Source: an uncultured virus (IMG/VR IMGVR_UViG_3300011906_000002) (taxonomy: Duplodnaviria > Heunggongvirae > Uroviricota > Caudoviricetes). From it: a stretch of 37,076 nucleotides of DNA. The notes below the pieces were generated by a model. It saw only the letters and a program-made list of their open reading frames with translations, searched no databases and was not told the origin of the DNA. The number at the start of each line of letters is the position of its first letter. Within the stretch, counting starts at the first letter, position 1. The DNA lies in the IMG/VR virus record IMGVR_UViG_3300011906_000002, positions 186,001-223,076 of that record; one strand, given 5' to 3'. Positions 12,775 to 36,640 of the stretch are shown here, one piece after another. A program made the position numbers and the translations under genes.

Positions 12775-13266
12775 ATGTTAGTACACGTAGATGTCTCAGA
12801 CTTACAACTGGCTCAAAACCATCTGTTCCGTCTATTCGAACCGTACTTGCTTGACTGTGCGATTAATTACTGCGCCAGCTATAGGTCCATGCCGTATGAG
12901 AAGTTTCACACGGAGATGATCGAGTACCTATTTGACGGGACCTTGATGGACGAGGACTTCCGGGTAGTGGGCCAGCCGGTGATGGATCGGTTAAACGATC
13001 TGGAGGAGCACGAGTTCAACATGTTGGCAATGATCAGCTACAGCATCTACCAACGTGTGACGCAGTTCTATTGTCACATCTGGCAGGAACCCTCACTGAA
13101 AGAATCGGTTTTAGTCGGCTACCAAGGGCATCGAAACTACCGGATGATTGAGGTGGAGATCGAGGTGGATGCACCAGACCACCTATTGGCTGCACTACAT
13201 AACCGCAGAATGATCAAACACAAAAAACCCATGCAAGACCTAACCTACATTCCTAAAGGGATATGA
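12775..13266 (+). CDS. Hypothetical protein
   Basis: ATG 12775 after AGGTG and downstream of the early promoter (the track start at 12568 overlaps the opposite gene); ATGA-coupled to the next gene. Confidence 0.65.
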   Translation: MLVHVDVSDLQLAQNHLFRLFEPYLLDCAINYCASYRSMPYEKFHTEMIEYLFDGTLMDEDFRVVGQPVMDRLNDLEEHEFNMLAMISYSIYQRVTQFYCHIWQEPSLKESVLVGYQGHRNYRMIEVEIEVDAPDHLLAALHNRRMIKHKKPMQDLTYIPKGI

Positions 13267-13892
13267 TGATGTTTAAACTGATTGAAGACCGTGTCAATGG
13301 AGAAAGCCGTTTCTCGCAAATCCGGGGTAGTTACCTGGGTAATGGTGAACTCGACGCGGAGGTCTTAGCTGAAGTTGGGGATCTGATCAACCAAGGCGTA
13401 TTGGGCTTTGTTCTGGCGTGGCATCCGATTCACGATGACAGCGAAGACTCGATCCAGTACGCACGCATTCTCCAAATCCCACAGCCTCGTGTGTTACGCA
13501 CGGTGGTGATTGAAGGGATCGATGGCATACCAGTCACCATCTCACCAAACCTCTCTACAGAGATGCGGTACGTTGTGATTGGTGATCTGTCGTTCTATGA
13601 CGTCCACGAATACAATTTCATGCGTAAGGAGGTGGAGAAAGCCTGTGTTGACAACAACCGTCCTCGTGCGTTTTTCGTAGACGGTGGTGAACTACGTGAC
13701 TACTTCACGTTGAACTACATGTCGTTTGGTGAAAACGAACTGTTGATGCCAACCGTCCCTAACGTGTGGATCATCGATGAGAGTGGTCGCCACATCTGTC
13801 GGGCTTTTACGCCCAGTTTCTACCCGGCAACCCTAGAAGACCTAGAGGATCTTGACGATGACGACAATCACACTGACCCGAGTGAAGTTTGA
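13263..13892 (+). CDS. Hypothetical protein
   Basis: 209 aa ORF in coupled run; acidic C-terminus. Confidence 0.65.
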   Translation: MMMFKLIEDRVNGESRFSQIRGSYLGNGELDAEVLAEVGDLINQGVLGFVLAWHPIHDDSEDSIQYARILQIPQPRVLRTVVIEGIDGIPVTISPNLSTEMRYVVIGDLSFYDVHEYNFMRKEVEKACVDNNRPRAFFVDGGELRDYFTLNYMSFGENELLMPTVPNVWIIDESGRHICRAFTPSFYPATLEDLEDLDDDDNHTDPSEV

Positions 13893-17853: not shown

Positions 17854-18237
17854 ATGAAGAACCAACTTCCCCGTGTATACCGTTACAAGCCCGTGATTGG
17901 CAGCCGCGTTGCTGACAAGTTCATGTTGAGGATGCCCGACAAGATGCGGGACGATGTAAAGGAGCGGGCGGGAGAAAACAATCGTTCGATGAACTCAGAA
18001 CTCCTCGATATGATTGAGCGACAACTCAATGCTTCGTCGGAAAGTGCTAAATGGATTCCGACCGTGGGTCAGGTGGTTAGATACGAAGAAAAGTATTATG
18101 TCATCGACAACTTTGTATTTGAACGTGGTGGCCTTTACGCAAAGTTGAAGCCCACGTTTCTTCAGTCAGGAAGTTTTGGTCTACCTCCAGAAGACCCAAC
18201 CGTCCTGGTCTTTGAACTTACACCCCTACAACTCTAA
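17854..18237 (+). CDS. Arc/AmrZ-like ribbon-helix-helix DNA-binding protein
   Basis: SRVADKFMLRMPDKMRDDVKERAGENNRSMNSELLDMIERQL matches the Arc family and Pseudomonas AmrZ (SRTADKFVVRLPEGMREQI...HHRSMNSEII). Confidence 0.85.
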   Translation: MKNQLPRVYRYKPVIGSRVADKFMLRMPDKMRDDVKERAGENNRSMNSELLDMIERQLNASSESAKWIPTVGQVVRYEEKYYVIDNFVFERGGLYAKLKPTFLQSGSFGLPPEDPTVLVFELTPLQL

Positions 18238-23923: not shown

Positions 23924-24433
23924 ATGCAGATAGACATGTTTGCACCACAAGAGGCCGGTACGGTCGCCATGGAACCCTTAGGTCCAGGTTGGATGGCACG
24001 TTATCATCACCAACCCAACTGTAAAGTTCCTCCTCTGATTATCGTTGATGACAAGTTGGATGTGTATGTCAAACAACTGGTGGCCACTAAAATCAACCTA
24101 GCCGTATCCTGGTGGTTGATTGCGAGTTACGCCTACTACATCCTTGATGAAACTTTAATCAGCGATGAGCTATTTGATGAACTTACCCAAGTCATCAAAC
24201 TTAACTTTGACCGTATTGAACACATCAATAAAGACCTGATCACCGAAGATCGTTTGTCGGCAGGTTCGGCGTATGACTTGCGTCTGTACCCCACCCGTGT
24301 GATGAGTGTAACCCAGCAGTTACTGGAGAAAATGCGTCAAGCTTATCCCAATAAAAAGATGAGTGCATCGTACGAACAGTTGGGTAAACCGCTCAAAGAT
24401 CCTTCTGAATATAAAAGCATGGTCCGCCCCTGA
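23924..24433 (+). CDS. Stand-alone NAD-dependent DNA ligase domain Ia-like protein
   Basis: Probable ATG 23924 after GAGGAGG (alternative 23882); ASYAYYILDETLISDELFDEL matches LigA Ia YY.LD.P.ISD.EYD.L; no KxDG adenylation domain. Confidence 0.65.
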   Translation: MQIDMFAPQEAGTVAMEPLGPGWMARYHHQPNCKVPPLIIVDDKLDVYVKQLVATKINLAVSWWLIASYAYYILDETLISDELFDELTQVIKLNFDRIEHINKDLITEDRLSAGSAYDLRLYPTRVMSVTQQLLEKMRQAYPNKKMSASYEQLGKPLKDPSEYKSMVRP

Positions 24434-24456
24434 AAAGGGTGCGGACTTTATGCCGC
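24422..24456 (+). terminator. Terminator with TATGCCG tail overlapping the stop codon
   Basis: GTCCGC-CCCT-GAAA-AGGG-T-GCGGAC then TTTATGCCGC. Confidence 0.75.
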
Positions 24457-24463
24457 CTTTGTT

Positions 24464-24476
24464 CAGAAATCGTATG
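24464..24476 (+). promoter_or_regulatory. Putative late promoter of fibre module 1
   Basis: CAGAAATCGTATG; near-identical to 28470-28482 and 35009-35020. Confidence 0.65.
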
Positions 24477-24539
24477 AAAAAGGAACAGGGATTGTGCTTG
24501 GGATACTGGCCTCTCTACAAGCACTGTTCTTTTTTTTTT
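24477..24539 (+). promoter_or_regulatory. Structured 5' leader hairpin with TACTGGCCTC loop and poly-T tail
   Basis: AAAAAGGAACA/TGTTCTTTTTT and GTGCTTG-GGA/TCT-A-CAAGCAC stems enclose the loop at 24504-24513; same loop at 35047-35056. Confidence 0.6.
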
Positions 24540-24567
24540 GCCCTAATACACAACTGGAATCTTTATC

Positions 24568-24966
24568 ATGTCTGAGAAACGTTTTTTCGGTTTTACCGAT
24601 TTCTCCAATTGGGTTCGGGGACAAGTCACCACCCTGAGCGAATACTTAAATCTTAAACTGGGTGAGGCCGATACTCGTCTAGGCGAGATGGATACCAAGC
24701 TGCTGAACAAAGCAGACCAAAGTGCTCTGGATCTCACCAACGAAGCGGTGGCCACTAAAGCCAATCAAAACGAAGTGTCTGATGCACTGGACAGTAAGTT
24801 GAATGCTGATGCCATTGCCGTTGATTCGGCGAAGCTGGGTGGACAAGAACCGACTCACTTTGCCACTGCACAAGCAGTCACTCAGTTGGAAGCTGACGTC
24901 AACACTATGCTGACTGACCTCACTGCTGCGTTTAACGCCGGCACTGAAACCATCAACGCCGTCTAA
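24568..24966 (+). CDS. Short tail-fibre/adaptor protein (MSEKRFFGF family, module 1)
   Basis: 132 aa; N-terminus shared with 28536 and 35108; KADQ/KANQ coiled-coil repeats; DSAKLGG fibre motif. Confidence 0.7.
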   Translation: MSEKRFFGFTDFSNWVRGQVTTLSEYLNLKLGEADTRLGEMDTKLLNKADQSALDLTNEAVATKANQNEVSDALDSKLNADAIAVDSAKLGGQEPTHFATAQAVTQLEADVNTMLTDLTAAFNAGTETINAV

Positions 24967-24977
24967 GTAGGAGGTGA

Positions 24978-25796
24978 ATGATGGGCCTTAACACCATAGC
25001 TGAACTTGCTACGCGTGTCGCCACGGCTCATCAGGACTCACGGGAATTCGCCGAACAGTACCCAGATTTACTTAAACAGAGTTTGTCTGTGGTGCTGTAC
25101 GTCGATCCCGATACGGGGAATGATGACAACGATGGCCTGTCGTGGACAAGTGCTAAAGCCACGATCCGCAGTGCGGCAGACGAGATCCCAGGGGGTGGAT
25201 CAGGCACGATTAATTTGGTCAAGGGTAAAATCTATCTGCTGACCGCTGACATTCCGTGTGGGAACAAATTCATCCAGATCAACGGGATTCATGATTTTGA
25301 TTACACCGGGACTTACGCCACAATCAAACCGGTCTTTAACAACAGTCCTACCTTGGTGGCTGGTACGCGTTTTCACATCGGACAAAACGGGTTTCTATAC
25401 CTACGAGGTTGTCGACTGGAGACCTTAAAATACACCGCCGCTGAAGCCAGTTTAACCCACACCGATTACGCAACGTCTTTGTTGAACACCAACACGGCGT
25501 GGGGCGCCTTCTGGTTGGAACATTGTCAGGTGATCTTGAACAATGGTCCGTTGATGCATCAGCACTCAGCAGGTAGTTACGGGTGTGCTGATTTGTTTAT
25601 GCGTGAGATCGACGTCACTCGCACCCCAGTCGGTGAACTGACAGACAGTCGCCGCAGTGCAGTGTTAATGGGGACGCACGGTAACGCACCGATTCCGTTT
25701 CGGCTTTATGCGTACCGGGTCATTCTCAACAACATCCCAACGCTTAAAGAACTGTTTACCCAAACTTTGGTTGCGGCAAAAACCAACGTCGTTTAA
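24978..25796 (+). CDS. Putative tail-fibre receptor-binding protein, paralogue A1
   Basis: 272 aa; LYVDPDTGNDDNDG...AKATI..A motif of beta-helix/tailspike-like domains; paralogous to 25809. Confidence 0.6.
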   Translation: MMGLNTIAELATRVATAHQDSREFAEQYPDLLKQSLSVVLYVDPDTGNDDNDGLSWTSAKATIRSAADEIPGGGSGTINLVKGKIYLLTADIPCGNKFIQINGIHDFDYTGTYATIKPVFNNSPTLVAGTRFHIGQNGFLYLRGCRLETLKYTAAEASLTHTDYATSLLNTNTAWGAFWLEHCQVILNNGPLMHQHSAGSYGCADLFMREIDVTRTPVGELTDSRRSAVLMGTHGNAPIPFRLYAYRVILNNIPTLKELFTQTLVAAKTNVV

Positions 25797-25808
25797 CTAG
25801 GAGGTTAT

Positions 25809-26669
25809 ATGAGTATTCCAACAGGTGCCTCCGCTACACTGGAGGCGTTTAACCAATTCGTCTCTGGAGTAGAAGGAAAGTTGACCGGGTTTAAACAAAC
25901 CCAAACGGATTTGTCCAAAGGTGCCGGCACCACCGTACACCAGAACATGGATCAAATCCTTTACGTCGACCCTACAGCAGGCAACGACAGCAACGATGCT
26001 CGTTCGTGGTTCATGGCCGCTGCCACCATCGAAGGTGCCGTGTCTAAAGTTCCGGTTGGTGGATTCGCAGCGATCTATCTCAAGGCGGGTGTGACTCACC
26101 GGATGACCCAACAGGTTGATCTGGAAAATCGCTCGATTCTTTTGGCTGCCTCGACTTACGACTACTACGTTGACTCCACCTACATCCCAATCGAATCGGT
26201 GATGTACGTCGTGGAAGACGGAGAGGTGCAGGCCGGTGGGTTTAAGATGGGGCGGCGGAGTTTCTTGCGGGTGGTGGGATGTAAACTCATCACAGGCAAA
26301 TACACCGCAGCACAAGCAAGTTTAATCAAAAACGATTGGCAGTCCTCGTTTATCAGTTCCTTCGGATCGAAAGGTACGGTGTTCTTGGAACACTGTCAGA
26401 TCGTTCTGAATAACGGACAGTTTACGCACCAGCACACCGGTGGCAGTATCGGGACGGTTGATCTCTACATGCGTAACGTAGACATTGTGGTGACTGCAGT
26501 TTCTGCCTTAGTAGTGACTGCACGGTCCCCCTACCTGATCGGACAATACGCTGGCGATGCCATGCCTTTCTTTGCGTACGGTATTGAGATGTCCAAAGCT
26601 TCGGGTGTGACGTGGGCCAGTTTGATCTACGCCACCACTACTTACGCCACCACTAACCTGAAGGATTGA
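25809..26669 (+). CDS. Putative tail-fibre receptor-binding protein, paralogue A2
   Basis: 286 aa; LYVDPTAGNDSND; shares KYTAA.ASL and LEHCQ..LNNG...HQH..GS.G..DL.MR with A1. Confidence 0.6.
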   Translation: MSIPTGASATLEAFNQFVSGVEGKLTGFKQTQTDLSKGAGTTVHQNMDQILYVDPTAGNDSNDARSWFMAAATIEGAVSKVPVGGFAAIYLKAGVTHRMTQQVDLENRSILLAASTYDYYVDSTYIPIESVMYVVEDGEVQAGGFKMGRRSFLRVVGCKLITGKYTAAQASLIKNDWQSSFISSFGSKGTVFLEHCQIVLNNGQFTHQHTGGSIGTVDLYMRNVDIVVTAVSALVVTARSPYLIGQYAGDAMPFFAYGIEMSKASGVTWASLIYATTTYATTNLKD

Positions 26670-26673
26670 TGAC

Positions 26674-26943
26674 ATGTTGATCAAGTCATTGGAACACGAA
26701 GGTCGAGTTTACGACTTTTGGGAAGCCGACCGTTTGTTGGAAATTGGGTTGCCAGCCGATGTTGTTCAAGCTGCCGTAACTCGTCAAGAACTGGAAGACG
26801 TTCAAGCGCTGCGACAAACAGCTTACCGAGCCGAATCCGATCCGCTCTTTCTGGAATGGCAATACGACCAGACCCCCGAGAGCGAACAACTGTGGCGTGA
26901 CAAAGTAGCTGAGATTAAAGCTCGCTATCCGTTGCCTGTCTAA
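26674..26943 (+). CDS. Putative tail-fibre assembly chaperone
   Basis: R..AY..ESDPLF.EWQYD......W..KV.EIK.RYP pattern, common downstream of fibre genes. Confidence 0.6.
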   Translation: MLIKSLEHEGRVYDFWEADRLLEIGLPADVVQAAVTRQELEDVQALRQTAYRAESDPLFLEWQYDQTPESEQLWRDKVAEIKARYPLPV

Positions 26944-26955
26944 CCGAGGTGGTCT

Positions 26956-27576
26956 ATGGACGCTACAACACGGGCGGCCTTATCCGAGTCGATCGATAAT
27001 TTCTCTATGGCTATTAAAGGGAAAACCGATACACTCGAAGTAGGGATCGCTGAACAAGAAACAAACGCAATACAGCAAAGCGAACTGCGTGAGATTGATG
27101 GCATTCCGTACAACATCGGAACAGTGCGTAAGTCGATCTTCCAGGGGTTTATCGCAAACACCACAGGTACTGTGGAATCAACAAGTGCACAAGGGGATTT
27201 TGACCTAATTCCAAACCTAGGTACCAATGCTAACGTGTACGTGCACATCAAGGTTCCGATTAACGTCAATGTAAATTCGGAGATGATGTGGTTTCACCTA
27301 ACAGGGTATGCGTTTGGTGCTGCTAAGATCATTGACGAGGTAATCGTCGGTTACAGCTACGCTCCTAGTAAGACCCTTATGAACAACAGTGCATCAGGCA
27401 ATCTAAGTCCTGTTATGTATACCGATGCCAGTGGTAACGTGGTGTTGCGACTTTTGTTCCCAAGTATCTATTACGCCACGCTCAAGATCGATACCATGAA
27501 GGTGGGTAACGGTCGCCTGTTTCAGAAAGGCGATCTGATTGCCAGACTCTCACTTAGCGCTACCATTAACTTCTAA
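26956..27576 (+). CDS. Putative tail-fibre tip/lectin-like protein, paralogue B1
   Basis: 206 aa; short helical N-terminus then beta-rich domain; paralogous to 27817. Confidence 0.55.
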   Translation: MDATTRAALSESIDNFSMAIKGKTDTLEVGIAEQETNAIQQSELREIDGIPYNIGTVRKSIFQGFIANTTGTVESTSAQGDFDLIPNLGTNANVYVHIKVPINVNVNSEMMWFHLTGYAFGAAKIIDEVIVGYSYAPSKTLMNNSASGNLSPVMYTDASGNVVLRLLFPSIYYATLKIDTMKVGNGRLFQKGDLIARLSLSATINF

Positions 27577-27585
27577 GGAGTTATC

Positions 27586-27804
27586 ATGAACGAAGAAGAA
27601 GTACTTAAGGCTGCGTGGGCCTCTGTCCGGGAAACACGTACTCAGCTGTTACGTAAGACCGATTTCACACAACTCCCCGACAGTCCATTGACTGAAGCGC
27701 AGCGTGCTGAAGTGGCTACGTACCGTCAACAGCTACGTGACCTTACCGAACTCAGTCAAAGCCCGTTTGAGGTTGTGTGGCCGACTTCGCCGTCCTTCTT
27801 ATAG
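27586..27804 (+). CDS. Tail-fibre assembly chaperone
   Basis: W..VR..R..LL..TD.TQLPD.PL......YRQ.LRDL......V.WP..P is the classic phage tail assembly chaperone pattern. Confidence 0.85.
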   Translation: MNEEEVLKAAWASVRETRTQLLRKTDFTQLPDSPLTEAQRAEVATYRQQLRDLTELSQSPFEVVWPTSPSFL

Positions 27805-27816
27805 TGAGGTGACGTG

Positions 27817-28446
27817 ATGACCATGCAAGAAAATCTATTGGGTGCCGTCGGGTCAATCGAACAGTTAGTTGGTGATACTGCATTGGTCTTAAACGATCAA
27901 AACGCACGACTGGGTGTAGTGACCAACACCTTTTCAGAATTAGCCGATTTGCGGATGGTGGAAGGCGACCCCACTCGACCAGGGTGTGTGCGCCGAGCTA
28001 TCTTTCAAGGCATTGTGTACGCCACTGGTGGCCCACCCGGACTTGGTTCAGCTGGCGATTTTCCTCGGATAGATCTAGGTGAAACGTCCGCTGTCTACGT
28101 ACACTTCAAATTACCATTGAAGATCACCGTCAACAACCGCATGTTTCATTTGCGAATCCGTGGGTACTCTTACGGTAATGCAAAAGCGGTGGATGAAACG
28201 ATTGTCGGTTATTGCAAAGCCTCCTCAACACGGATAGAAGCGATCGCAACTAAAGGGAATTTCTCACCTACGGTTTACGTGGACGCTAACAACAATGTTG
28301 TCGTGAGGCTGTACTTTCCAAACATCTATTACACAACCGCCGTAATCGATTCCATGCGTGTGTCATCGGGTGCTGAAAGTGATATGTTCAAACGAGATGA
28401 CATAGTGGCAACGATGTCTAGAACATCCACCGTTAACTTCGGTTAA
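27817..28446 (+). CDS. Putative tail-fibre tip/lectin-like protein, paralogue B2
   Basis: ATG 27817 after GAGGTG; shares IFQG, GDF, VYVH.K.P, DE.IVGY and GN.SP..Y.DA..NVV.RL.FP.IYY with B1. Confidence 0.55.
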   Translation: MTMQENLLGAVGSIEQLVGDTALVLNDQNARLGVVTNTFSELADLRMVEGDPTRPGCVRRAIFQGIVYATGGPPGLGSAGDFPRIDLGETSAVYVHFKLPLKITVNNRMFHLRIRGYSYGNAKAVDETIVGYCKASSTRIEAIATKGNFSPTVYVDANNNVVVRLYFPNIYYTTAVIDSMRVSSGAESDMFKRDDIVATMSRTSTVNFG

Positions 28447-28469
28447 CTCTCGCCTTCCTACAGGTCTCT

Positions 28470-28482
28470 CAGAAATCTTATG
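28470..28482 (+). promoter_or_regulatory. Putative late promoter of fibre module 2
   Basis: CAGAAATCTTATG upstream of the ATG at 28536. Confidence 0.65.
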
Positions 28483-28535
28483 GGAAAGCACTGGGGAAGC
28501 CATGCTTTACTTTTTTAATCAACGGAGTCTCCACC

Positions 28536-30224
28536 ATGTCTGAGAAACGGTTTTTCGGCTTCGGTGAATTCGGAACTTGGGTTCGAGAGCAAGTCGCTGG
28601 GGTGATGTTGGCCCTGGGTGCTAAAGCTGACGCAACCTCCGTACACACCAAAACAGAAGCACTGGAAACCTTTTTGGCGATTGCTGGCAAGGCAGTGGAT
28701 TCGTCCTTGCTCGACGGCAACACCAAAGCCCAGATTATTCTTGAGGCAATTGCTAACGCTAACCTCGACAGTAAACTGGACGTTACAGCACGTGCCGAAT
28801 TTGCAACAGCTTTGCAGGGCACCAAGGCTGACAGTGCAATTCAACCTGATGTCTTGCAAGGGTTGTTAAACACCAAGCTTAATGCCTCGGGTTATACCGC
28901 AGGTGACGTCTTGGCTAAGTTGTTAACAGTTGATGGTGCAAGTTCTGGACTGGATGCCGACAAGCTCGACGGTAAACAACTGTCGGTGATTGAGTCTGAA
29001 TACAAAGCCTTTACTAACGCGGCAGTGGCTGCTCTGGTAGACTCTTCGCCCGATGCGCTGAATACGCTTAACGAGTTGGCGGTTGCTTTGGGTAATGACC
29101 CGAACTTTGCAACCACCATCACCAACCAGTTGTCCACTAAAGTTGACAACACTGACGCGCGTCTAACTGATGCTCGTGAATGGTTGGCCACCACAGTCAT
29201 CCAGTCTGAAGCTGAAACAGGTACTTCCACTACTCGCCGTGCATGGACTGCACAACGGGTGCGTCAAGCCATAACAGCTTGGTGGTCAGTGTCTGCAGAC
29301 AAAGCCAAGCTGGATGGAATTGCTGCAGGTGCAGACGTTAACGTACCCACCAATTTGGGTTACACCACAGGTGCTACTGCCGGTACTGTCACCAGCTCCA
29401 CTGGTACTAACGCCAGCCTGCCTGCAGCCACCACCGCAGCCGCTGGTCTGTTGAGTGCTACCGATAAGGTTAAGCTCAATGGGATTGCTGCTGGGGCCAC
29501 AGTGAACTCGACGGATGCTGCGTTGTTGGATCGTAGTAACCACACGGGGGCACAAGCGATCGCTACCGTGTCGGGTTTGCAAGCTGCACTGGATGCTAAG
29601 TTCAGCACTACCGGCGGCACTGTCAGCGGCAACATCACGGCCTCGAGTTTCTATTCCGCTAACTGGTTCCGCTCCACTGGTGCTACTGGCTGGTACAGCG
29701 AAACCTACGGCGGGGGCATCCACATGTCGGACACTACTTGGGTGCGTATTTACGGCTCCAAGAGTTTCTATGTGACTGGTAACATCGCAGCCACGGGTGA
29801 AATCAGCGGCTACTACTCCGATGAGCGTCTTAAAGAAAACATGACGCCTATAGTTGGGGCACTTGCTGGCCTGCGTACCATCAAAGGCTACCGGTACAAT
29901 GCCAGTGAACTGGGTGCTGAGTTTGGTTACGACCCACTCAAACCTGAGATCGGTTTCAGCGCTCAAGAATGGCAGGCCCTTGCGCCTGAGATTGTAGAGT
30001 TGGCACCTTTTGATTACAGTGATGACGGAGAACCGGGTGTATCAAAGTCGGGTGAACATTACCTGACCTTGAAGTACCATCGTACTCTGCCTCACGTGGT
30101 CATGGCTATCAACGAGTTAGCTGATTCTGTTGACAGTGATCGAATTGCTTTCCAACAATTGGTGGCCACGGTTGACGACATGAAAAAGCTGATCGCCGAC
30201 TTGCAAGCAGCCGCTCAGAAGTAA
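28536..30224 (+). CDS. Long tail fibre with C-terminal intramolecular chaperone (peptidase S74-type)
   Basis: 562 aa; MSEKRFFGF start; SGLDADKLDG, LVDSSPDALNTLNELA.ALGNDPNF, KAKLDGIAAGA, NHTG.Q fibre motifs; NWFRS.G.TGWY...YGGGI.M.D.TWVR segment; YSDERLKEN cleavage site; G..AQE; terminal coiled coil. Confidence 0.92.
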   Translation: MSEKRFFGFGEFGTWVREQVAGVMLALGAKADATSVHTKTEALETFLAIAGKAVDSSLLDGNTKAQIILEAIANANLDSKLDVTARAEFATALQGTKADSAIQPDVLQGLLNTKLNASGYTAGDVLAKLLTVDGASSGLDADKLDGKQLSVIESEYKAFTNAAVAALVDSSPDALNTLNELAVALGNDPNFATTITNQLSTKVDNTDARLTDAREWLATTVIQSEAETGTSTTRRAWTAQRVRQAITAWWSVSADKAKLDGIAAGADVNVPTNLGYTTGATAGTVTSSTGTNASLPAATTAAAGLLSATDKVKLNGIAAGATVNSTDAALLDRSNHTGAQAIATVSGLQAALDAKFSTTGGTVSGNITASSFYSANWFRSTGATGWYSETYGGGIHMSDTTWVRIYGSKSFYVTGNIAATGEISGYYSDERLKENMTPIVGALAGLRTIKGYRYNASELGAEFGYDPLKPEIGFSAQEWQALAPEIVELAPFDYSDDGEPGVSKSGEHYLTLKYHRTLPHVVMAINELADSVDSDRIAFQQLVATVDDMKKLIADLQAAAQK

Positions 30225-30235
30225 CTGCTATACTT

Positions 30236-30267
30236 AGGACTGAGTCGCAATGACTCAGTCCTTTGTT
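30236..30267 (+). terminator. Perfect 11-bp hairpin, possible leaky terminator or processing site
   Basis: AGGACTGAGTC-GCAAT-GACTCAGTCCT then TTGTT; no TATGCCG tail. Confidence 0.65.
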
Positions 30268-30291
30268 CTATTCATTGTGAGGTAATTCATT

Positions 30292-30843
30292 ATGGCATTG
30301 CCTACATCCGGTACGATCAGTTTCAGCATGATCAATATTGAACTGGGTCGTCCCGCTACTCAACGATTGAACTTAAGCGACGCCGCTATTCGACAATTGG
30401 CCGGGGCTTTAAGTGGTCCGGTAAACCTGTCCATGTTGCGGGGTAAAACCGTCAACAACAGCTTGGCCGAAGTGACGCTCGCTGCAGCCGCTTACGTACC
30501 TGCAGCAGGGTATGAATATGCAGGCTTCGGGTCGGCTACTTACGGTTCGATCTCACCCACCACTTTGTCCGGATACGCCATCCTGACTTGTTCGGTATTG
30601 AACTACGCCGGTAGCTACAGCTTATCTTTCGAAGTCAATACTGGTGGTGCGAGACCCGCTTGGTCTTATGCCACTAAGATTGTTATAGGTGGAGTGACTT
30701 TTTCAGGAGCCTTTGCACCCTTTACTAACACCAAAACTGGCACTACTACCATTGTCTTTTCTGTTGTTATTACGGCAGCTCAATTTAGCACAGTGCGTAG
30801 CGCCATCGTCAACCGTTCGACGGTTGTTAAACTTCTCCCTTAA
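30292..30843 (+). CDS. Putative fibre-tip adhesin / receptor-binding protein
   Basis: 183 aa; MALPTSG.IS...IN.ELG...L....R.LAG..SG...LS.L.GK N-terminus typical of proteins following S74-capped fibres; Thr/Ser/Gly/Tyr-rich beta C-terminus. Confidence 0.65.
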   Translation: MALPTSGTISFSMINIELGRPATQRLNLSDAAIRQLAGALSGPVNLSMLRGKTVNNSLAEVTLAAAAYVPAAGYEYAGFGSATYGSISPTTLSGYAILTCSVLNYAGSYSLSFEVNTGGARPAWSYATKIVIGGVTFSGAFAPFTNTKTGTTTIVFSVVITAAQFSTVRSAIVNRSTVVKLLP

Positions 30844-30852
30844 AGGTGACTC

Positions 30853-31089
30853 ATGTTTACGTTTGTTACTCGAAATGAAAAAAGTGTGGTGGTGGAGACG
30901 TTACACGGTAATGTAGAAATCTTCTACGAACCCATGAACGTAGGTACTCTACCACCTGACGAAGCATTCCTTCAAGGTATGGCTTATGCGGTGTTGTTTA
31001 ATTGCGGACTACCACACCAACCGGCCAGCAACCCCAATGAAGGGTTGGAAGAAACCCAAGTGACTCGAGAAGTCTCGGAGGACATTTAA
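30853..31089 (+). CDS. Small hypothetical protein
   Basis: 78 aa; AAGGTG RBS; abuts the next gene. Confidence 0.65.
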   Translation: MFTFVTRNEKSVVVETLHGNVEIFYEPMNVGTLPPDEAFLQGMAYAVLFNCGLPHQPASNPNEGLEETQVTREVSEDI

Positions 31090-31728
31090 ATGACTACAAC
31101 CTATACCCGTAACGGTTGGAACGTCACCCGCGTCAACGGGTTTGACTTGTTTGAACTGGTGCTTGAAAAAGACAAGATTGCAGCCATTCCTGTTGATGTG
31201 CCGAGTCAAGCCATTTTGGGTTCCAGTGATGCAGGTATCAACACCTACCGATTCAATGCGTTTATCGAGGGGACCTTCAAAGTCGGCTCCACGGTAACGC
31301 CTGAATTTATTCGTGGTCGTGGTGACGGGGCTGATGAAAGTCGCGTCACGGTTAAAGGCAGTTTCCATTTGGTTGGACTGGAGGAGCGCAATCGGTTTAT
31401 GTGCATCAACGCACAAGACCCAATGGCCAAACTGTACCTGTCGAAGAACTACGCCTTGGCACCGGGTGAGTCCTGTGTGATCACTCCTCGAGAGATGGAG
31501 CAAAACGTCTTCATTGTGGAAGGGGCTCTTCAGGTGAACGAAGGTGGGGTGTTCAACAACATCAAACACCTGCGCTTGACTAAACCTCAGGATTATAGCT
31601 TCCGTAACACCGGACAAGACAATGCGTTCTTGGTCTATGTTTATGAAGCAACTGTAGAAGAAGTCAAAGCCCAATGTACCAACGTTCCGGTGGATAGTTT
31701 GGCCACCGTTGAGAGTCTTCAGGAGTAA
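31090..31728 (+). CDS. Cupin/pirin-like double-stranded beta-helix protein
   Basis: 212 aa; two F..EG...V strands; LAPGES......VFIVEGALQVN......FRN......FLV resembles a pirin C-terminal cupin; no His metal motif seen. Confidence 0.5.
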   Translation: MTTTYTRNGWNVTRVNGFDLFELVLEKDKIAAIPVDVPSQAILGSSDAGINTYRFNAFIEGTFKVGSTVTPEFIRGRGDGADESRVTVKGSFHLVGLEERNRFMCINAQDPMAKLYLSKNYALAPGESCVITPREMEQNVFIVEGALQVNEGGVFNNIKHLRLTKPQDYSFRNTGQDNAFLVYVYEATVEEVKAQCTNVPVDSLATVESLQE

Positions 31729-31731
31729 CAC

Positions 31732-32520
31732 ATGCGAACCCCTCCATTTATGATTACCTATCCACGACTTAAAGTCGTGAATCGTTTGACAGCCGCCTGT
31801 GTCATGGCATCGCCACTCGTAGCGTTTGCTTTTGGTATGAGTTGGGGTCTGCTACTAGCGACCCTCGTGATCTGGCAGTTCATGCAAGTTGTAGGCTTAG
31901 TGGTAGGGGCGCATCGTTACTTCTCACACCGCATGTTCGCAACAAACCGCGTCTGGCAATGGATCATGGCTGTCAGTTGTGTCGGCGCCCTCACAGGACC
32001 ACCTTGCGTGTGGGCAGACTTACACATCAAGCACCACAAACACGCCGACGATGAAGACGATCCTTATATCGACTTCATTCGCACCGGGGTCTCACCGTTC
32101 AGTCATGAGAACTTCAAGGGTAATCGTACCTTGCTCAAGATGTTGGCGACTGACCCCATGCACGGTCTGACGATCAAGTATTACTTCTTGATAGTCTTAA
32201 CCTTGGCGTTGGTCTTAACCACCATTGGAACTGCAGCAGGCCTCGATCCGTTGACTGCGTTGTTTTGGCTGTATCTGGTCCCAGGCGGTTTGTGTCACAT
32301 GACCTTGCGCTTTGTGGTCTGGTCAGGACATGTACCGGGACTCGGTTACCGTAACCACGAGACACCGGATAACAGCCACAACTGGTGGTTGGTCTCATTG
32401 ATCTCTGGTGGAGAAGGCTGGCACAACAATCACCATCATGACCAAACCGCTGTCAACCTTCGCCAGAAATGGTGGGAGTTCGATCCTGCGTATTGGATTA
32501 TTAAGGCAATCCGTAAATGA
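31732..32520 (+). CDS. Membrane fatty-acid desaturase 1 (delta-9/DesC-like family)
   Basis: His boxes HRYFSH, HIKHHKH, GEGWHNNHH; hydrophobic TM segments; WWEFDP tail. Confidence 0.93.
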   Translation: MRTPPFMITYPRLKVVNRLTAACVMASPLVAFAFGMSWGLLLATLVIWQFMQVVGLVVGAHRYFSHRMFATNRVWQWIMAVSCVGALTGPPCVWADLHIKHHKHADDEDDPYIDFIRTGVSPFSHENFKGNRTLLKMLATDPMHGLTIKYYFLIVLTLALVLTTIGTAAGLDPLTALFWLYLVPGGLCHMTLRFVVWSGHVPGLGYRNHETPDNSHNWWLVSLISGGEGWHNNHHHDQTAVNLRQKWWEFDPAYWIIKAIRK

Positions 32521-33260
32521 AATACCTTCAGTTCAGCGGTAGAGCTTCGGTTCTAGTGGCTGTGCTGGCAATGGGGATCAGTTTGTTCTGCGTAATTCAC
32601 CCCAGTGCCTTATGGGTGCTGGGGAGTTTTATGGCCTTTCAAGTGTATTGGACCTGCGGCGTGGCATGCGGGGCTCATCGGTATTTTGTTCACCGGTCAT
32701 TTGAAACCAGTACATTCTGGCGAGAGTTTATGGTGTGGGCTATTTGTGCCGCCGGAGGACTCCATCCTTATATCAGCATTGCTATTCACCGTGAGCACCA
32801 CAAACACTCAGACACTCCAGACGATCCACACAACCATTATCGTGGTTGGGGTTTAGTCAACGCTAAGAAACTCAACCTGACTATCCCCAGACGGTTACGC
32901 AAACAGTTCTTAAGCGACCCGGTTGCCATGCGTATTCAGAAGTACTATCTCCTGTACCCTTTAGTTACAGCCACTGTTTTGGCCCTAGTGTCGTGGGAAG
33001 CCTTGATCTATTTATGGGCTATCCCAGCAGCACTGACCCAAGTGTTGCGTAAGACAGTATTGTTAGACTGGGTCCATCGGTTTGGGTATCAAAACTGGGA
33101 AACCAACGACCATTCTCGCAACTCCAAAATACTCGGTCTACTTTTTGGGGGTGAGGGTTTACACAACAACCATCACGCTTTTCCCAATCGCTGGAACATG
33201 GCCATGAAAAAAGGTGAGCTTGATCCAGGGGCGTGGTTTATCAGGTTAATCAAACGATGA
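32517..33260 (+). CDS. Membrane fatty-acid desaturase 2 (delta-9/DesC-like family)
   Basis: His boxes HRYFVH, HREHHKHSDT..DPH, GEGLHNNHHAFP; ELDP tail; ATGA overlaps at both ends. Confidence 0.95.
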   Translation: MKYLQFSGRASVLVAVLAMGISLFCVIHPSALWVLGSFMAFQVYWTCGVACGAHRYFVHRSFETSTFWREFMVWAICAAGGLHPYISIAIHREHHKHSDTPDDPHNHYRGWGLVNAKKLNLTIPRRLRKQFLSDPVAMRIQKYYLLYPLVTATVLALVSWEALIYLWAIPAALTQVLRKTVLLDWVHRFGYQNWETNDHSRNSKILGLLFGGEGLHNNHHAFPNRWNMAMKKGELDPGAWFIRLIKR

Positions 33261-34180
33261 AATTGAACCTACTCCAAAAGGCCTTTCTCAATGACGGGAA
33301 GGCCATGATGTACAGTAGCTTGAATGTACCGCTGTTCTCTTGTAGTCGAGACTTGATGCAAGAGGCTGTGGATGAACTCACGCATCGTATCCCACTGCTT
33401 AAGGCAGGTGTTGTGAACGGTAAAGTGATTACCCACGATCGGGTGCTAGTGACTCAAGGACATGGTGACCAACACCAAAACATCCCCAGCTGTTTAAGCG
33501 TTACTGAAGACCAGAACGGATTCTGGATCGGGTTGTCTCACGAATTCGTAGACGGTTGGACCTTCATGAAAGTCACCCGAGAACTTTTTAATATCGCCAG
33601 AACTGGCGAACTGGGTAACTACATCAGTAACCAACCCCTTCCAAAAATCCAAGCAACCGGTGCGTTAGAACTCAGACCTTTTCTCTTTCAAGGGGAGGTC
33701 GGATTAGCTAACACCTATTGCGTGCCCATCGGTACCGGCTATCTTAAAAACGCCAAAGCACAAGGCTTACGCGTACAGGACTACTTAGCACAAGTGGCTT
33801 GTGAGGTACTGGACAACCCTAATATCCTAACCACCCGTTTTGTTGAAGGGTGTGAGGACTACTGGGGCCATTATTCACTGTACGGTTTAGGGTCGAATAA
33901 AGACGGTCAGTTCTCCCTTGACATCAGTCATGAAAACTTCACACGACTGATCATGAAGTTTGGAATGAGTGAGAAGATTGGAAACTTCTTTGTTGGCTCG
34001 TTCCCCATTGGACCTAGCGCCTTCGAACCTACAGACTTGGTTCAGTTTCTTAAAAAGAATCAGATGGGTCGTTTACAAGTCATCTCGTATAACGGCACTC
34101 ATCATCTGCGGATCGCTTTCAACAAAGCTATCCCCAACCAAACAAAATACATCGACCAGTTTGTCGAGCTTTTATCATAA
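33257..34180 (+). CDS. CoA/ACP-dependent acyltransferase (condensation-domain/CAT-like fold)
   Basis: ATG 33257 in ATGA overlap; about 307 aa; LMQEAVDELTHRIPLLKA helix and SHEFVDGWT (HxxxDG catalytic motif). Confidence 0.6.
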   Translation: MKLNLLQKAFLNDGKAMMYSSLNVPLFSCSRDLMQEAVDELTHRIPLLKAGVVNGKVITHDRVLVTQGHGDQHQNIPSCLSVTEDQNGFWIGLSHEFVDGWTFMKVTRELFNIARTGELGNYISNQPLPKIQATGALELRPFLFQGEVGLANTYCVPIGTGYLKNAKAQGLRVQDYLAQVACEVLDNPNILTTRFVEGCEDYWGHYSLYGLGSNKDGQFSLDISHENFTRLIMKFGMSEKIGNFFVGSFPIGPSAFEPTDLVQFLKKNQMGRLQVISYNGTHHLRIAFNKAIPNQTKYIDQFVELLS

Positions 34181-34190
34181 GGAGGTCGGT

Positions 34191-34970
34191 ATGAAACTTT
34201 GGGAATACACTCGCTCCAGAGGCGAGTTCATGCCACTGCAAGTGGTTCTAGCAGTAGTCATGGTGCCTGTGTTTATTACGGTCGCTGATTTAGACTACCG
34301 GTGGTTATGGGCAACCTTGGGAATGGTCGCCTTCTTCAACGTCTGCTTGATAGAGGCCTTTGCTCACCGTTTCTGTACACACGGTGCTTATGAGCTTAAT
34401 AAGCCCTTAGAATGGCTCCTAGCCATCCTCACAAGTGTAGTGCCAGGGACAGGCTCAACTATCGGGTGGGCGATGATTCATGCAGCCCATCACCAATACT
34501 CAGACACGGCTAAAGATCCTCACAGTGCACAGTACTCCAAGTTTTGGGAGCTGTTGGTGTGGCGTTACCCTTACACTGGAAACTTGCATTCAGTGCGGTA
34601 CCTGACACGTGATCCGGTCCACAAAGCTTTGCACCAGTATTACTTGGTGTGGATGTTGGCTTGGGCTGGGTTGTGGTACGTCGTGGCGGGAATCAACGGT
34701 TTTGTTTTTATGGTCCTATTACCCTGGGGTTTGGGTCCTTTTCTCTCCACCGTACAGAACTACATGTTACATGCTGATGCACCGTTGAACTACCGCAATT
34801 TCAGCACGCCTGATAATTCACAGAATTCACCGAGCATGCATTTGTTAAGCTTTGGAGCGTGCGGATTACACAACAACCACCATGCTCATCCTCGAGCCTG
34901 GGTCACGGCGATGAAGAAATACGAGATTGATACAGCAGCGTGGTTTATCCGGTTGATCAAAAAAGATTAA
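34191..34970 (+). CDS. Membrane fatty-acid desaturase 3 (delta-9/DesC-like family)
   Basis: ATG 34191 after AAGGAGG; His boxes HRFCTH, HAAHHQYSDT.KDPHS, LHNNHHAHP; NYMLH; EID tail. Confidence 0.93.
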   Translation: MKLWEYTRSRGEFMPLQVVLAVVMVPVFITVADLDYRWLWATLGMVAFFNVCLIEAFAHRFCTHGAYELNKPLEWLLAILTSVVPGTGSTIGWAMIHAAHHQYSDTAKDPHSAQYSKFWELLVWRYPYTGNLHSVRYLTRDPVHKALHQYYLVWMLAWAGLWYVVAGINGFVFMVLLPWGLGPFLSTVQNYMLHADAPLNYRNFSTPDNSQNSPSMHLLSFGACGLHNNHHAHPRAWVTAMKKYEIDTAAWFIRLIKKD

Positions 34971-35008
34971 GTTTGTCATTCATTTACGGACTTTGCCCGT
35001 ACAAACTG

Positions 35009-35020
35009 CAGAATCTTATG
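35009..35020 (+). promoter_or_regulatory. Putative late promoter of fibre module 3
   Basis: CAGAATCTTATG upstream of the ATG at 35108. Confidence 0.65.
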
Positions 35021-35029
35021 AGAGTGCGA

Positions 35030-35073
35030 TGAAAAAGGGCTCTCGACACTGGCCTCTCGATTAACCTTTTTCA
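35030..35073 (+). promoter_or_regulatory. Structured 5' leader hairpin with CACTGGCCTC loop
   Basis: TGAAAAAGG/CCTTTTTCA outer stem and TCGA/TCGA inner stem enclosing 35047-35056. Confidence 0.6.
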
Positions 35074-35107: not shown

Positions 35108-35911
35108 ATGTCTGAGAAACGTTTTTTCGGTTTTACCGAATTTTCGAGCTGGGTGTCGACTAAGGTTAGCGATGCTCTCGCTATCGTCGATGCGGCCCTA
35201 AGCTCCACTGTGAAAAAGACCGATGACTTCGGTCAATACAAGGTCGGCGAGCTGGAACTGTCTGCGCTTCTGGCAGACTTGGCTTCGGGGGCTGATCTGG
35301 CGACCCTGCAACAAGGCTTCAATGATTTCGTCGCTGCTAAGGCCACGACTCTGGAAGCCGTCGCCGGTACTGATGACGTCAAGTACATCACTGCTCTGAC
35401 AGCCAAAGCGGCCATCGAGGCAGCGGTTAACGACCTGGTTGGTTCTTCTCCGGAAGCACTGAACACCATCGCCGAACTGGCAGAAGCACTGTCGAACAAC
35501 CCAGACGTGATCACTGAACTGACTACCCTGGTAGGCCAAAAGCTTGATGCAAACGCACAGGCCACTGACTCTGCCAAGCTGGGTGGTCAACTGCCTGGTT
35601 ACTACGCTACCGCTGATCAAGTGGCTAGCAAGCTGGATTCGACTGCTACTGCTGCTGACTCTCAGCGTCTGGGTGGTCTGTTGCCGGGTAGCTATGCAAC
35701 TGCTGAAGCCTTGGCTGGCAAACTGGGCACTGGTGCTCAAGCTACCGACTCGGCTAAGTTGGAAGGGCGTTCCAAAGCTGAAGTCATGGCCGACACCAAG
35801 GCTTTTCTGGCTCTGGGCACTGCGTCTAAATCCGACATCTTCGTATCCACTGTGGACCCGATCTCTACCGATGGTAAAGACGGCGACCTCTGGATCAAGT
35901 ACACTCCGTAA
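35108..35911 (+). CDS. Short tail fibre (MSEKRFFGF family, module 3)
   Basis: 267 aa; LVGSSPEALNTIAELAEAL.NNP, three KL......DS..L.G repeats, terminal P...DG.DGDLWIKY motif. Confidence 0.85.
   Translation: MSEKRFFGFTEFSSWVSTKVSDALAIVDAALSSTVKKTDDFGQYKVGELELSALLADLASGADLATLQQGFNDFVAAKATTLEAVAGTDDVKYITALTAKAAIEAAVNDLVGSSPEALNTIAELAEALSNNPDVITELTTLVGQKLDANAQATDSAKLGGQLPGYYATADQVASKLDSTATAADSQRLGGLLPGSYATAEALAGKLGTGAQATDSAKLEGRSKAEVMADTKAFLALGTASKSDIFVSTVDPISTDGKDGDLWIKYTP
35540..35770 (+). repeat. Degenerate 90-nt (30-aa) tandem repeat within the fibre gene
   Basis: Units begin at 35540, 35630 and 35720: KLDANAQATDSAKLGG..YATA / KLDSTATAADSQRLGG..YATA / KLGTGAQATDSAKLEG. Confidence 0.8.
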
Positions 35912-35937: not shown

Positions 35938-36558
35938 ATGACCACTTTTTTCTCGGCCTCGCGCCTTGGTCTGTTCAACATGCCGGTTGGTGATGCGGTC
36001 GAACTGAGCGAAGAAGTTGCTGCTGCTCTGACTGCTGAACTGGTTGCCGGTAAAGTGCTTTCGGTTGATGCTGAAGGCAATCCTATCGCAGTAGAAGCGC
36101 CTCAGGCGCCAAGCTACGAAGAGATCTTCCTGAGCAAGCCTATCGCTGAGCGTCTGGCTATCCAACTGGGTCGTCTGAATGCTGATTACGATCAGGCGGT
36201 AGCGGTACTCAACTCCGATTACCCAACTGCTGAAACTCACACTTGGACGCTGCAGGTTACTGAAGCCCGCGAATACCAAGCGTGGATCGACGGCGGTCGG
36301 GTTGGTGACGCTCCTGCAACACCGTTCTTGGCTGAACTGAACGAAGGTCGCGTTGCGGCTAACGTAGGCGAAGGCTTCGAAGACCTGGTGTCGCGTGTCC
36401 TGGCAAACGATGCGGTGTACAGTCCTGCCCTGGCAGCCTTTACTGCGTACCGTCATGGTATTGAAAAGCAACTGCGTACTGCTGAAGTAGTAGGTGACGA
36501 TGCTGCATTCAACGCCATCAGCTGGACCTTTGCTCAACCGGAAGCTCCGGTAGCCTAA
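35938..36558 (+). CDS. Tail-fibre assembly protein
   Basis: FFSAS..G.F..P.DAVELSEE....L......GK....DA.G.P N-terminus (Tfa-like) plus YP..E..TW..Q..EA......TPFL..L...R module. Confidence 0.75.
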   Translation: MTTFFSASRLGLFNMPVGDAVELSEEVAAALTAELVAGKVLSVDAEGNPIAVEAPQAPSYEEIFLSKPIAERLAIQLGRLNADYDQAVAVLNSDYPTAETHTWTLQVTEAREYQAWIDGGRVGDAPATPFLAELNEGRVAANVGEGFEDLVSRVLANDAVYSPALAAFTAYRHGIEKQLRTAEVVGDDAAFNAISWTFAQPEAPVA

Positions 36559-36562
36559 GGTG

Positions 36563-36640
36563 AATCCGTGGGGCCTTCGGGCCTCACGGGTTTTATGCCG
36601 GCATAAAGCGCTCTAAGGGACCGAAGTCCCCCAGAGGCTA
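36563..36640. terminator. Convergent terminator pair joined by palindromic TTTATGCCGGCATAAA
   Basis: Plus strand: AATCCGTGGGGCC-TTCG-GGCCTCACGGGTT-TTATGCCG. Minus strand: GGGAC-CGAA-GTCCC hairpin with CGGCATAAA on its left. Confidence 0.85.

Follow-up and report, generated by a model that had tools for sequence, protein, structure and literature searches.

The stretch of DNA analysed here (the window, 37,076 nt) is the last 37 kb of a 223,076-base uncultured virus record, G000 (IMG/VR IMGVR_UViG_3300011906_000002), and it carries two fibre-like genes, A and B, each preceded by a structured 5′ leader that contains the same short conserved core. By tblastn, G000 matched phiKZ gp54 (E 2e-26), PhuZ (2e-33), gp55 and gp68, as did the related records G001 and G003. 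Since relatives of the nuclear shell protein, of PhuZ and of non-virion RNA polymerase subunits are encoded, the phage is, judged by its gene content, a nucleus-forming phiKZ-like jumbo phage. Its nearest named phages are 30-36% identical in protein, no named phage gave a blastn match to this DNA, and no tRNA genes were found in G000. The clade considered below consists of G000 and five further records, namely G001 (complete), G002, G003, G004 (a fragment) and G006. Among G000, G001 and G003, the median protein identity is 78-82% and fourfold-degenerate sites are 49-54% identical.

The peptide MSEKRFFGF opens three genes of the window, A (24568), C (28536) and B (35108), and the N-terminal peptide common to the fibre paralogues reads M(S/F)(E/D)KRFFGF. 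The three proteins match tail-fibre PHROGs, A only weakly; A and B are about 30% identical, and the arms of their leaders have diverged. A further 54 homologues of B were recovered as proteins alone, with about 25 more distant ones at 43-70% identity. Each of the three genes is preceded by the motif CAGAA(A)TCNTATG, and the TATG motif is conserved upstream of A, B, C and also of D, a fourth fibre-family gene located outside the window. In phiKZ the late promoter is TATG and its G is position +1 (PMC4666361); by analogy, we infer that this G is also +1 in the present clade. The features on which the analysis turns are the following, with positions in the window unless G000 is named.

24464..24476, plus strand: late promoter-like motif of gene A, predicted start G24476
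24476..24539, plus strand: leader A, a 5′-terminal rod with bulges that ends in a T10 run (24530-24539)
24496..24515, plus strand: conserved core A, GCT-N3-GA-N-ACTGGCCTCTC; 24507-24515 exactly complements nt 3-11 of the gene D transcript
24568..24966, plus strand: gene A, 132-aa fibre-like protein (phrog_23820 tail fibre, E 1.5e-8, weak)
28470..30224, plus strand: region of paralogue C, a 562-aa fibre with an S74 chaperone domain; promoter type as in A and B
35009..35020, plus strand: late promoter-like motif of gene B, predicted start G35020
35020..35085, plus strand: leader B, a rod with a lower A/G-run helix, a 4x4 internal loop, a TCGA/TCGA helix and a 10-nt loop
35039..35058, plus strand: conserved core B; 35050-35058 exactly complements nt 3-11 of the gene D transcript
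35108..35911, plus strand: gene B, 267-aa fibre-like protein, with a 105-aa segment 57% identical to protein D
G000 64599-63235, minus strand, TATG at 64641: gene D, 454-aa fibre-family protein, outside the window

The core GANACTGGCCTCTC lies at +26 to +28 in the leaders of A and B and is missing from that of C, a short hairpin that serves as an internal control; the orthologue of C in G002 has a different, long leader hairpin, also without the core. Across the six records, GANACTGGCCTCTC was invariant in all 11 A and B leaders. This 14-mer is present in two copies in each of G000-G003 and G006 and in one copy in the fragment G004, while controls with the reversed pattern gave 0 matches. When the upstream GCT is included, 16 fixed positions are invariant in 11/11 leaders; G000, G001 and G003 each have exactly two matches to this 16-position pattern, the best of the remaining sites carrying 3 mismatches. 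Conservation of the loop in related phages, the lack of which the original prediction had named among the results that would refute it, was thus borne out. The computed probability of neutral survival of the core is 1e-5 or less per locus. Because these 16 positions have been kept even though the A and B proteins are only about 30% identical and the leader arms have diverged, the pattern of conservation indicates that the core is maintained by selection and not by drift.

Searches outside the clade returned no homologous leader. Rfam 15 gave no family at the gathering threshold (the best matches were mir-6, 26 bits against 58, and PreQ1, 10.5 against 39). In phiKZ, the core pattern was absent at up to 2 mismatches, a covariance-model search found one weak match (E 0.4), and the leader of gp182 lacks the core. 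A scan for TATG plus the 14-mer returned 39 matches, nine of which were from this clade; the rest were unrelated, two of them being tRNA-Glu. A relaxed scan gave at least 121 matches, and among the 80 examined the core occurred in two, both already known leaders. A metagenome scan recovered the G006 contig alone, already in the set, and all 15 matches of a scan anchored on TGAAAAAGG were unrelated. The core and four contig-id stems were absent from 6 supplementary files of a catalogue of phage structured RNAs (Fremin et al., PMC10690425), files 1, 2 and 4 of which lay outside the search and may list the motif. Taken as a sequence element, the core is real, selected and uncatalogued, and so far restricted to one uncultured clade, which agrees with the proposal of an undescribed conserved regulatory element in a structured late leader.

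A less specific explanation is that the leaders are ordinary 5′ stabilising hairpins with a U-rich enhancer or a premature terminator, the shared core having been left over from the duplication that gave A and B. The two genes are paralogues and their leaders align end to end; leaders with a 5′ hairpin and a U run also precede other late genes and paralogue C of G002; and intergenic DNA is well conserved in this clade anyway (three-way identity of 73% among G000, G001 and G003, with 268 invariant runs of at least 11 nt), which also counts against the pairing with gene D discussed below. However, a relic would have had to keep 16 positions at the level of divergence of the A and B proteins and of fourfold-degenerate sites given above, and the other 5′ hairpins have small ordinary loops. 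We consider this explanation improbable. As a separate observation on the intergenic DNA, invariant stretches of 107, 63 and 61 nt occur at G000 122170-122276, 108148-108210 and 172670-172730 in three genomes with about 50% neutral identity; they lie outside open reading frames (ORFs) of at least 100 aa and are candidates for small genes or non-coding RNAs.

Folding predictions for the leaders give rods that begin at +1 and have 18-23 enclosing pairs. The loop words TACTGGCCTC (24504-24513) and CACTGGCCTC (35047-35056), which had been reported to form the same 10-nt loop, are present, each downstream of a TATG promoter-like motif. The 10-nt loop itself is predicted in the B leaders (P 0.89-0.93) but not in the A leaders (P 0.00-0.17), where an 8-nt or open loop is preferred. 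In spite of this difference, ACUGGCC is predicted to be unpaired (0.84-0.99) in all 11 leaders. A co-varying stem had also been claimed, and this was not confirmed: GTGCTTG/CAAGCAC and TCGA/TCGA are not homologous, B having an internal loop at the position of the A helix. RNAalifold covariation terms were unfavourable (+0.52 for A, +0.09 for B). In the B stem all 72 cells pair and 2 of the 12 pairs are changed on both sides, which 10 of 500 shuffles also reach; both double-changed pairs lie in a purine/pyrimidine run that can slip, and the four apical pairs are constant. Formal covariation of the leader stems is weak. Folding z-scores are modest (-0.6 to -2.5, and -0.5 to -1.7 against arm shuffles). 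Finally, ACAACTGGA and TGAAAAAGG, described as common to both leaders, are shared in the window but not in relatives: ACAACTGGA, which is the ribosome-site region, is not kept in the five B orthologues, and TGAAAAAGG is not kept in any of four A orthologues.

The poly-T run noted in the first leader corresponds to the T10 run at 24530-24539. The U tract is T9-11 in 5/5 A leaders and T5-7 in the B leaders. A simple terminator scan called neither leader; the leaders are long bulged rods, and no alternative antiterminator was found for them. Attenuation is plausible in A, whose T9-11 tail resembles the terminators of G000, and the case for it in B, with T5-7 only, is weak. Because several other late genes of these genomes are also preceded by a 5′ hairpin and a U run, the rod is the ordinary part of these leaders and the invariant loop the special one.

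A candidate partner for the loop was found at the 5′ end of gene D. The three-genome alignment contains an invariant 28-nt intergenic stretch at G000 64621, which on the minus strand reads as the TATG motif followed directly by GAGAGAGGCCAAACTCTT, the predicted 5′ end of the D message. Nucleotides 3-11 of this transcript are the exact complement of TGGCCTCTC. With the start placed in this way, the late D transcript begins with GAGAGGCCA, an exact complement of the loop, and both this word and the first 18 nt of D are identical in all five records that hold the site; an IMG/VR scan with this 5′ end returned, besides G000, the 4 relatives among them alone. No match to the D 5′ end was found in the fragments G006 and G007 or in the distant G005. 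On the circular map, 66 kb or more separate gene D from A and B; D heads its own operon, upstream of a 938-aa fibre-like gene, and matches tail-fibre PHROGs. The pairing word proposed originally, GAGGCCAGT, did not hold up: its single other copy in G000 is the antisense of a coding stretch near the B operon, the partner reading GAGAGGCCA instead. The more general option of a loop-pairing site has thereby gained a concrete candidate.

For the first 18 nt of D, prediction gives a weak hairpin of 5 bp whose loop contains GCCAAA; as ACUGGCC is exposed in A and B, both sides present GGCC. Predicted duplexes with D comprise 9 bp for B and 10-11 bp plus a second helix of 5-6 bp for A; in the second helix A and D differ at two positions, both of which become G-U pairs. 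After the cost of opening both hairpins, the net predicted binding is -7.3 to -11.7 kcal/mol for the 9-bp duplex and -5.5 to -7.1 kcal/mol for a 6-bp seed. Prediction thus gives a seed that is accessible and has its complement in a conserved, likewise accessible target on another transcript. When all TATG leaders were screened against each other (37 in G000, 48 in G001 and 42 in G003, with one of A/B reported per genome), the loop of A/B and the 5′ end of D were the sole leader-leader match of at least 9 nt in the three genomes. With shuffled 11-mers, a conserved 9-mer fell within 25 nt of a conserved intergenic TATG (54 sites) in 0.18% of 20,000 trials. Treating CTCTC as fixed, since late 5′ ends often resemble GAGAG, raises this chance to 1-3%. 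None of these estimates makes use of the partner being a fibre gene, nor is any adjusted for the ideas that were tried earlier.

Several results count against the match to D. The null is 4.7% for any conserved intergenic 9-mer and 23% for any conserved 9-mer, and D came up as a partner after four or five other ideas had failed. Raw duplex energies with D (-19 to -24 kcal/mol) are outside the top 8 sites per genome, chance sites reaching -25 to -30, and RNAcofold places an intermolecular helix in the optimal structure for only 6 of 9 pairs. No pair of the loop-D type was found in phage DT01 (30 leaders) or G005 (22 leaders). There are no compensatory changes between loop and D; since both sides are invariant in all records, pairing is indistinguishable from a shared DNA site. 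The ribosome site of D has an unpaired probability of 0.01-0.07 with or without binding, so that simple occlusion is unlikely, and the start sites are themselves placed from TATG. In its own right, the D ribosome site is predicted to be sequestered by codons 4-6 of the same gene (G000 64570-64615, minus strand), and the coding DNA there is identical in 5/5 records.

Other partners were tried and rejected. The leader of gene E (a 173-aa gene; G000 9117-9147, plus strand) opens with the same loop complement in G000 only, and the orthologues in G001 and G003 differ. No conserved partner occurs within the own gene up to codon 20, where the best duplexes (-4.9 to -10.1) fall in unrelated places, which rules out a pseudoknot between the leader loop and early codons, and pairing of the loop with the own ribosome site or the operon terminator is not conserved.

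With these results on both sides, the reading that we tentatively prefer, without regarding it as established, is that the core acts as a recognition loop in the RNA and, by pairing in trans with the 5′ end of a different late fibre mRNA, couples fibre operons. The A and B leaders carry UGGCCUCUC and the D transcript, from its predicted start, opens with GAGAGAGGCCAAACUCUU. A and B are predicted to expose ACUGGCC at the tip of the rod, and D to expose GCCAAA; the first contact would be UGGCCU with AGGCCA, extending to 9 bp in B, or to 10-11 bp plus a 5-6-bp helix in A. Such pairing would explain the U on both sides of GGCC. Also, CUGG of the loop fits YUNR, the U-turn pattern known from loops of antisense RNAs. 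Pairing may involve the full mRNA or, for A, an RNA of about 60 nt released at the T10 run. The likeliest outcome would be that the paired RNA shields the 5′ end of D from 5′-end-dependent decay; the output of D/D2 would then track transcription of the A and B operons, keeping fibre subunits in proportion. Protection of the D 5′ end is inferred by analogy with Listeria hly-prsA2, for which mRNA-mRNA pairing that protects a 5′ end is described (PMC8722363). The short form of the A RNA has precedent in phiKZ, where PMC10914365 reports many short RNAs derived from 5′-UTRs (untranslated regions) and a 71-nt RNA released from one leader in more than 90% of transcripts. Together with the terminator-like T10 tail, this leader RNA suggests that A may supply a short trans-acting RNA. 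The proposal that the element sets the choice of fibre module, by switching between A and B, is unsupported, because A and B carry the same loop and the optional paralogue C lacks it.

The same conservation may instead be that of DNA, and this is the strongest rival, unlikely as we judge it to be. The site GAN[AT][CT]TGGCCTCTC would serve a phage protein or the non-virion RNA polymerase, either as an operator or as a downstream promoter element, after the late promoters of the three fibre operons. It stands forward in A and B (about +26) and inverted in D (+3 to +16), and RNA complementarity would be a by-product of the inversion. G000, G001 and G003 each contain exactly three copies of the double-stranded motif, at A, B and D, its distance from the start site is constant in A and B (+26 to +28), and DNA downstream of TATG is reported to alter phiKZ late transcription about 30-fold (PMC4666361). 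An Arc-like DNA-binding protein is encoded in the window (17854-18237, plus strand) and would be a candidate regulator, but its identity in G001 and G003 is only 39-49%, in contrast to the invariant site, and its own gene is not preceded by such a site. Moreover, A/B and D differ in the location and the orientation of the site, which is not a clean palindrome and is missing from paralogue C and other late promoters; both copies lie in predicted hairpin loops, and changes in the rod keep the pairing.

Alternatively, a phage protein (an unassembled fibre, a chaperone or an antitermination factor) might bind ACUGGCC at the tip of the rod and control translation of, or read-through into, A and B, the match to D being due to chance. 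An invariant single-stranded loop on divergent stems is the usual signature of a protein-bound RNA, and in T4 the operator of gene 43 is a hairpin with a conserved loop, about 40 nt upstream of a start codon (PMC3014915). In G000, 11 of the 15 T9+ runs follow compact hairpins, and the T10 run that ends leader A resembles these runs; early termination near promoters is reported to be common in phiKZ and 201phi2-1 (PMC10914365, PMC11512511). Nevertheless, B has only T5-7 and the simple scan calls neither leader a terminator; 50-60 nt and a whole rod separate the loop from the ribosome site; A and B differ in loop size; and the complement in D would be left unexplained (p ~0.002-0.03). On balance we find a protein-bound loop doubtful.

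Trans pairing could also belong to a wider scheme, in which address loops on late structural mRNAs bring full-length messages together by their leaders. Fibre mRNAs made at distant loci would then be exported, stabilised or translated next to one another, to the benefit of co-assembly of a fibre with several subunits, and a sheath/head complement would belong to the same network. We regard this extension as rather unlikely. The complement in question concerns the leaders of the tail sheath (G000 108201, minus strand) and the major head protein (13143-13308, plus strand), which contain complementary words of 8 nt and 10 nt. Both words are invariant in G000, G001 and G003, and in DT01 the longer word is present as a 9-nt version, which has one matched change. 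As the longer word resembles a promoter motif, it may be a DNA element.

The position of the two cores also suggested recombination. They are direct repeats around a variable cassette of 6-13 kb, and could be a recombination site for swapping it; or, as the core equals part of the D arm and anticodon arm in some tRNA-Glu(CUC) genes, a mimic or relic of that tRNA. Both ideas are largely refuted and very improbable. The flanks of the core stay paralogue-specific on both sides in 11/11 leaders, the cassette swaps fall after gene A and before promoter B (with a loose end at 35011 in run X3), and no joint between the cores was present among the joints listed for 4 sequencing runs; the runs consisted of contigs, and the pieces listed for the RNA run cover neither core. 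A site-specific recombination site was rejected in the absence of crossovers at the repeat and of hybrid flanks. Regarding the tRNA, bacterial genomes gave at least 120 matches to the core against about 280 expected by chance, and only 2 of the 80 examined were tRNAs (tRNA-Glu), with no host motif among them. No tRNA model matched, B lacks the 3′ anticodon strand, and neither an anticodon stem-loop nor a cloverleaf was found, which led us to discard a tRNA-like element.

Several known systems resemble parts of the proposed pairing. Closest in origin are short leader RNAs of phiKZ and 201phi2-1, in the same phage group, such as phiKZ T102 (before PHIKZ221) and the gp182/gp277 leader RNA sRNA005, which come from structured leaders directly after a promoter (PMC10914365, PMC11512511); in the gp182 case, the leader likewise precedes a structural gene. 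Premature termination that gives a 60-100-nt RNA is a further possible likeness. These leader RNAs have no sequence relation to those of A and B, and no target is proposed for them in the accessible parts of these reports. In Listeria hly-prsA2 (PMC8722363), an mRNA is stabilised when part of another, functionally linked mRNA pairs with its 5′ end, and Rli51 (PMC11394854) is an early-terminating leader that also acts in trans, an RNA binding its loop. In Listeria the partner is a 3′-UTR or a host small RNA (sRNA) and the pairing is proven, whereas here 5′ leader would meet 5′ leader by prediction; the present case also differs in concerning phage structural genes, with two donors (A and B) and one acceptor (D). 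Pairing of a phage RNA with another transcript of the same phage is described for P1/P7 c4 RNA and P22 sar RNA (PMC12197685). These RNAs are dedicated to immunity in temperate phages and act by blocking the synthesis of antirepressor, in contrast to late structural mRNAs whose ribosome site is not the target. The T4 gene 43 operator likewise has a conserved hairpin loop tens of bases before the start codon on stems that change; it is described as bound by the protein of its own gene and overlapping the ribosome site, while here the loop has an RNA complement instead (PMC3014915). A literature search, mostly without subscription journals, found neither the motif nor leader-to-leader pairing between phage structural mRNAs. 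The predicted A/B-D case thus combines known kinds, a leader-derived RNA and mRNA-mRNA pairing.

In phiKZ-like phages, structural genes are scattered over the genome and transcription, in the phage nucleus, is apart from translation; the locus bears on how these phages balance virion parts. They make many leader-derived short RNAs, according to PMC10914365 and PMC11512511, and the locus offers a named seed and a named target for asking whether such RNAs act on other phage mRNAs. If the DNA site were the true explanation, the locus would be a candidate fibre-specific late regulon.

The remaining features of the two operons are as follows.

24422..24454, plus strand: terminator-like hairpin with a TTTATGCC tail, among the 37 TTTATGCC sites of G000, which parts operon A from the upstream gene
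24978..34970, plus strand: swappable cassette between A and B, with content that varies across relatives
35938..36599, plus strand: fibre-assembly-like gene and operon terminator after B

The cassette holds putative binding modules, fibre chaperones, paralogue C and three fatty-acid-desaturase ORFs. The latter (PF00487) lie in 31732-34970 (plus strand) with one 315-aa ORF that carries an HxxxDG-like motif; this set is present in G002 and was not seen in the stretches examined of G001, G003, G004 and G006. Immediately upstream of operon A is a stand-alone gene for an NAD-ligase N-terminal domain (Nlig-Ia, PF22745; 23882-24433, plus strand), which has the same place in the four relatives examined. 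Terminator-like elements in G000 fall into two classes, a hairpin with T9-12 (15 runs, all on the plus strand) and a hairpin with TTTATGCC, a sequence that occurs at 37 sites, mostly after a hairpin. Such elements lie in the window at 24447 and 36592, and the two classes often stand back to back as bidirectional elements.

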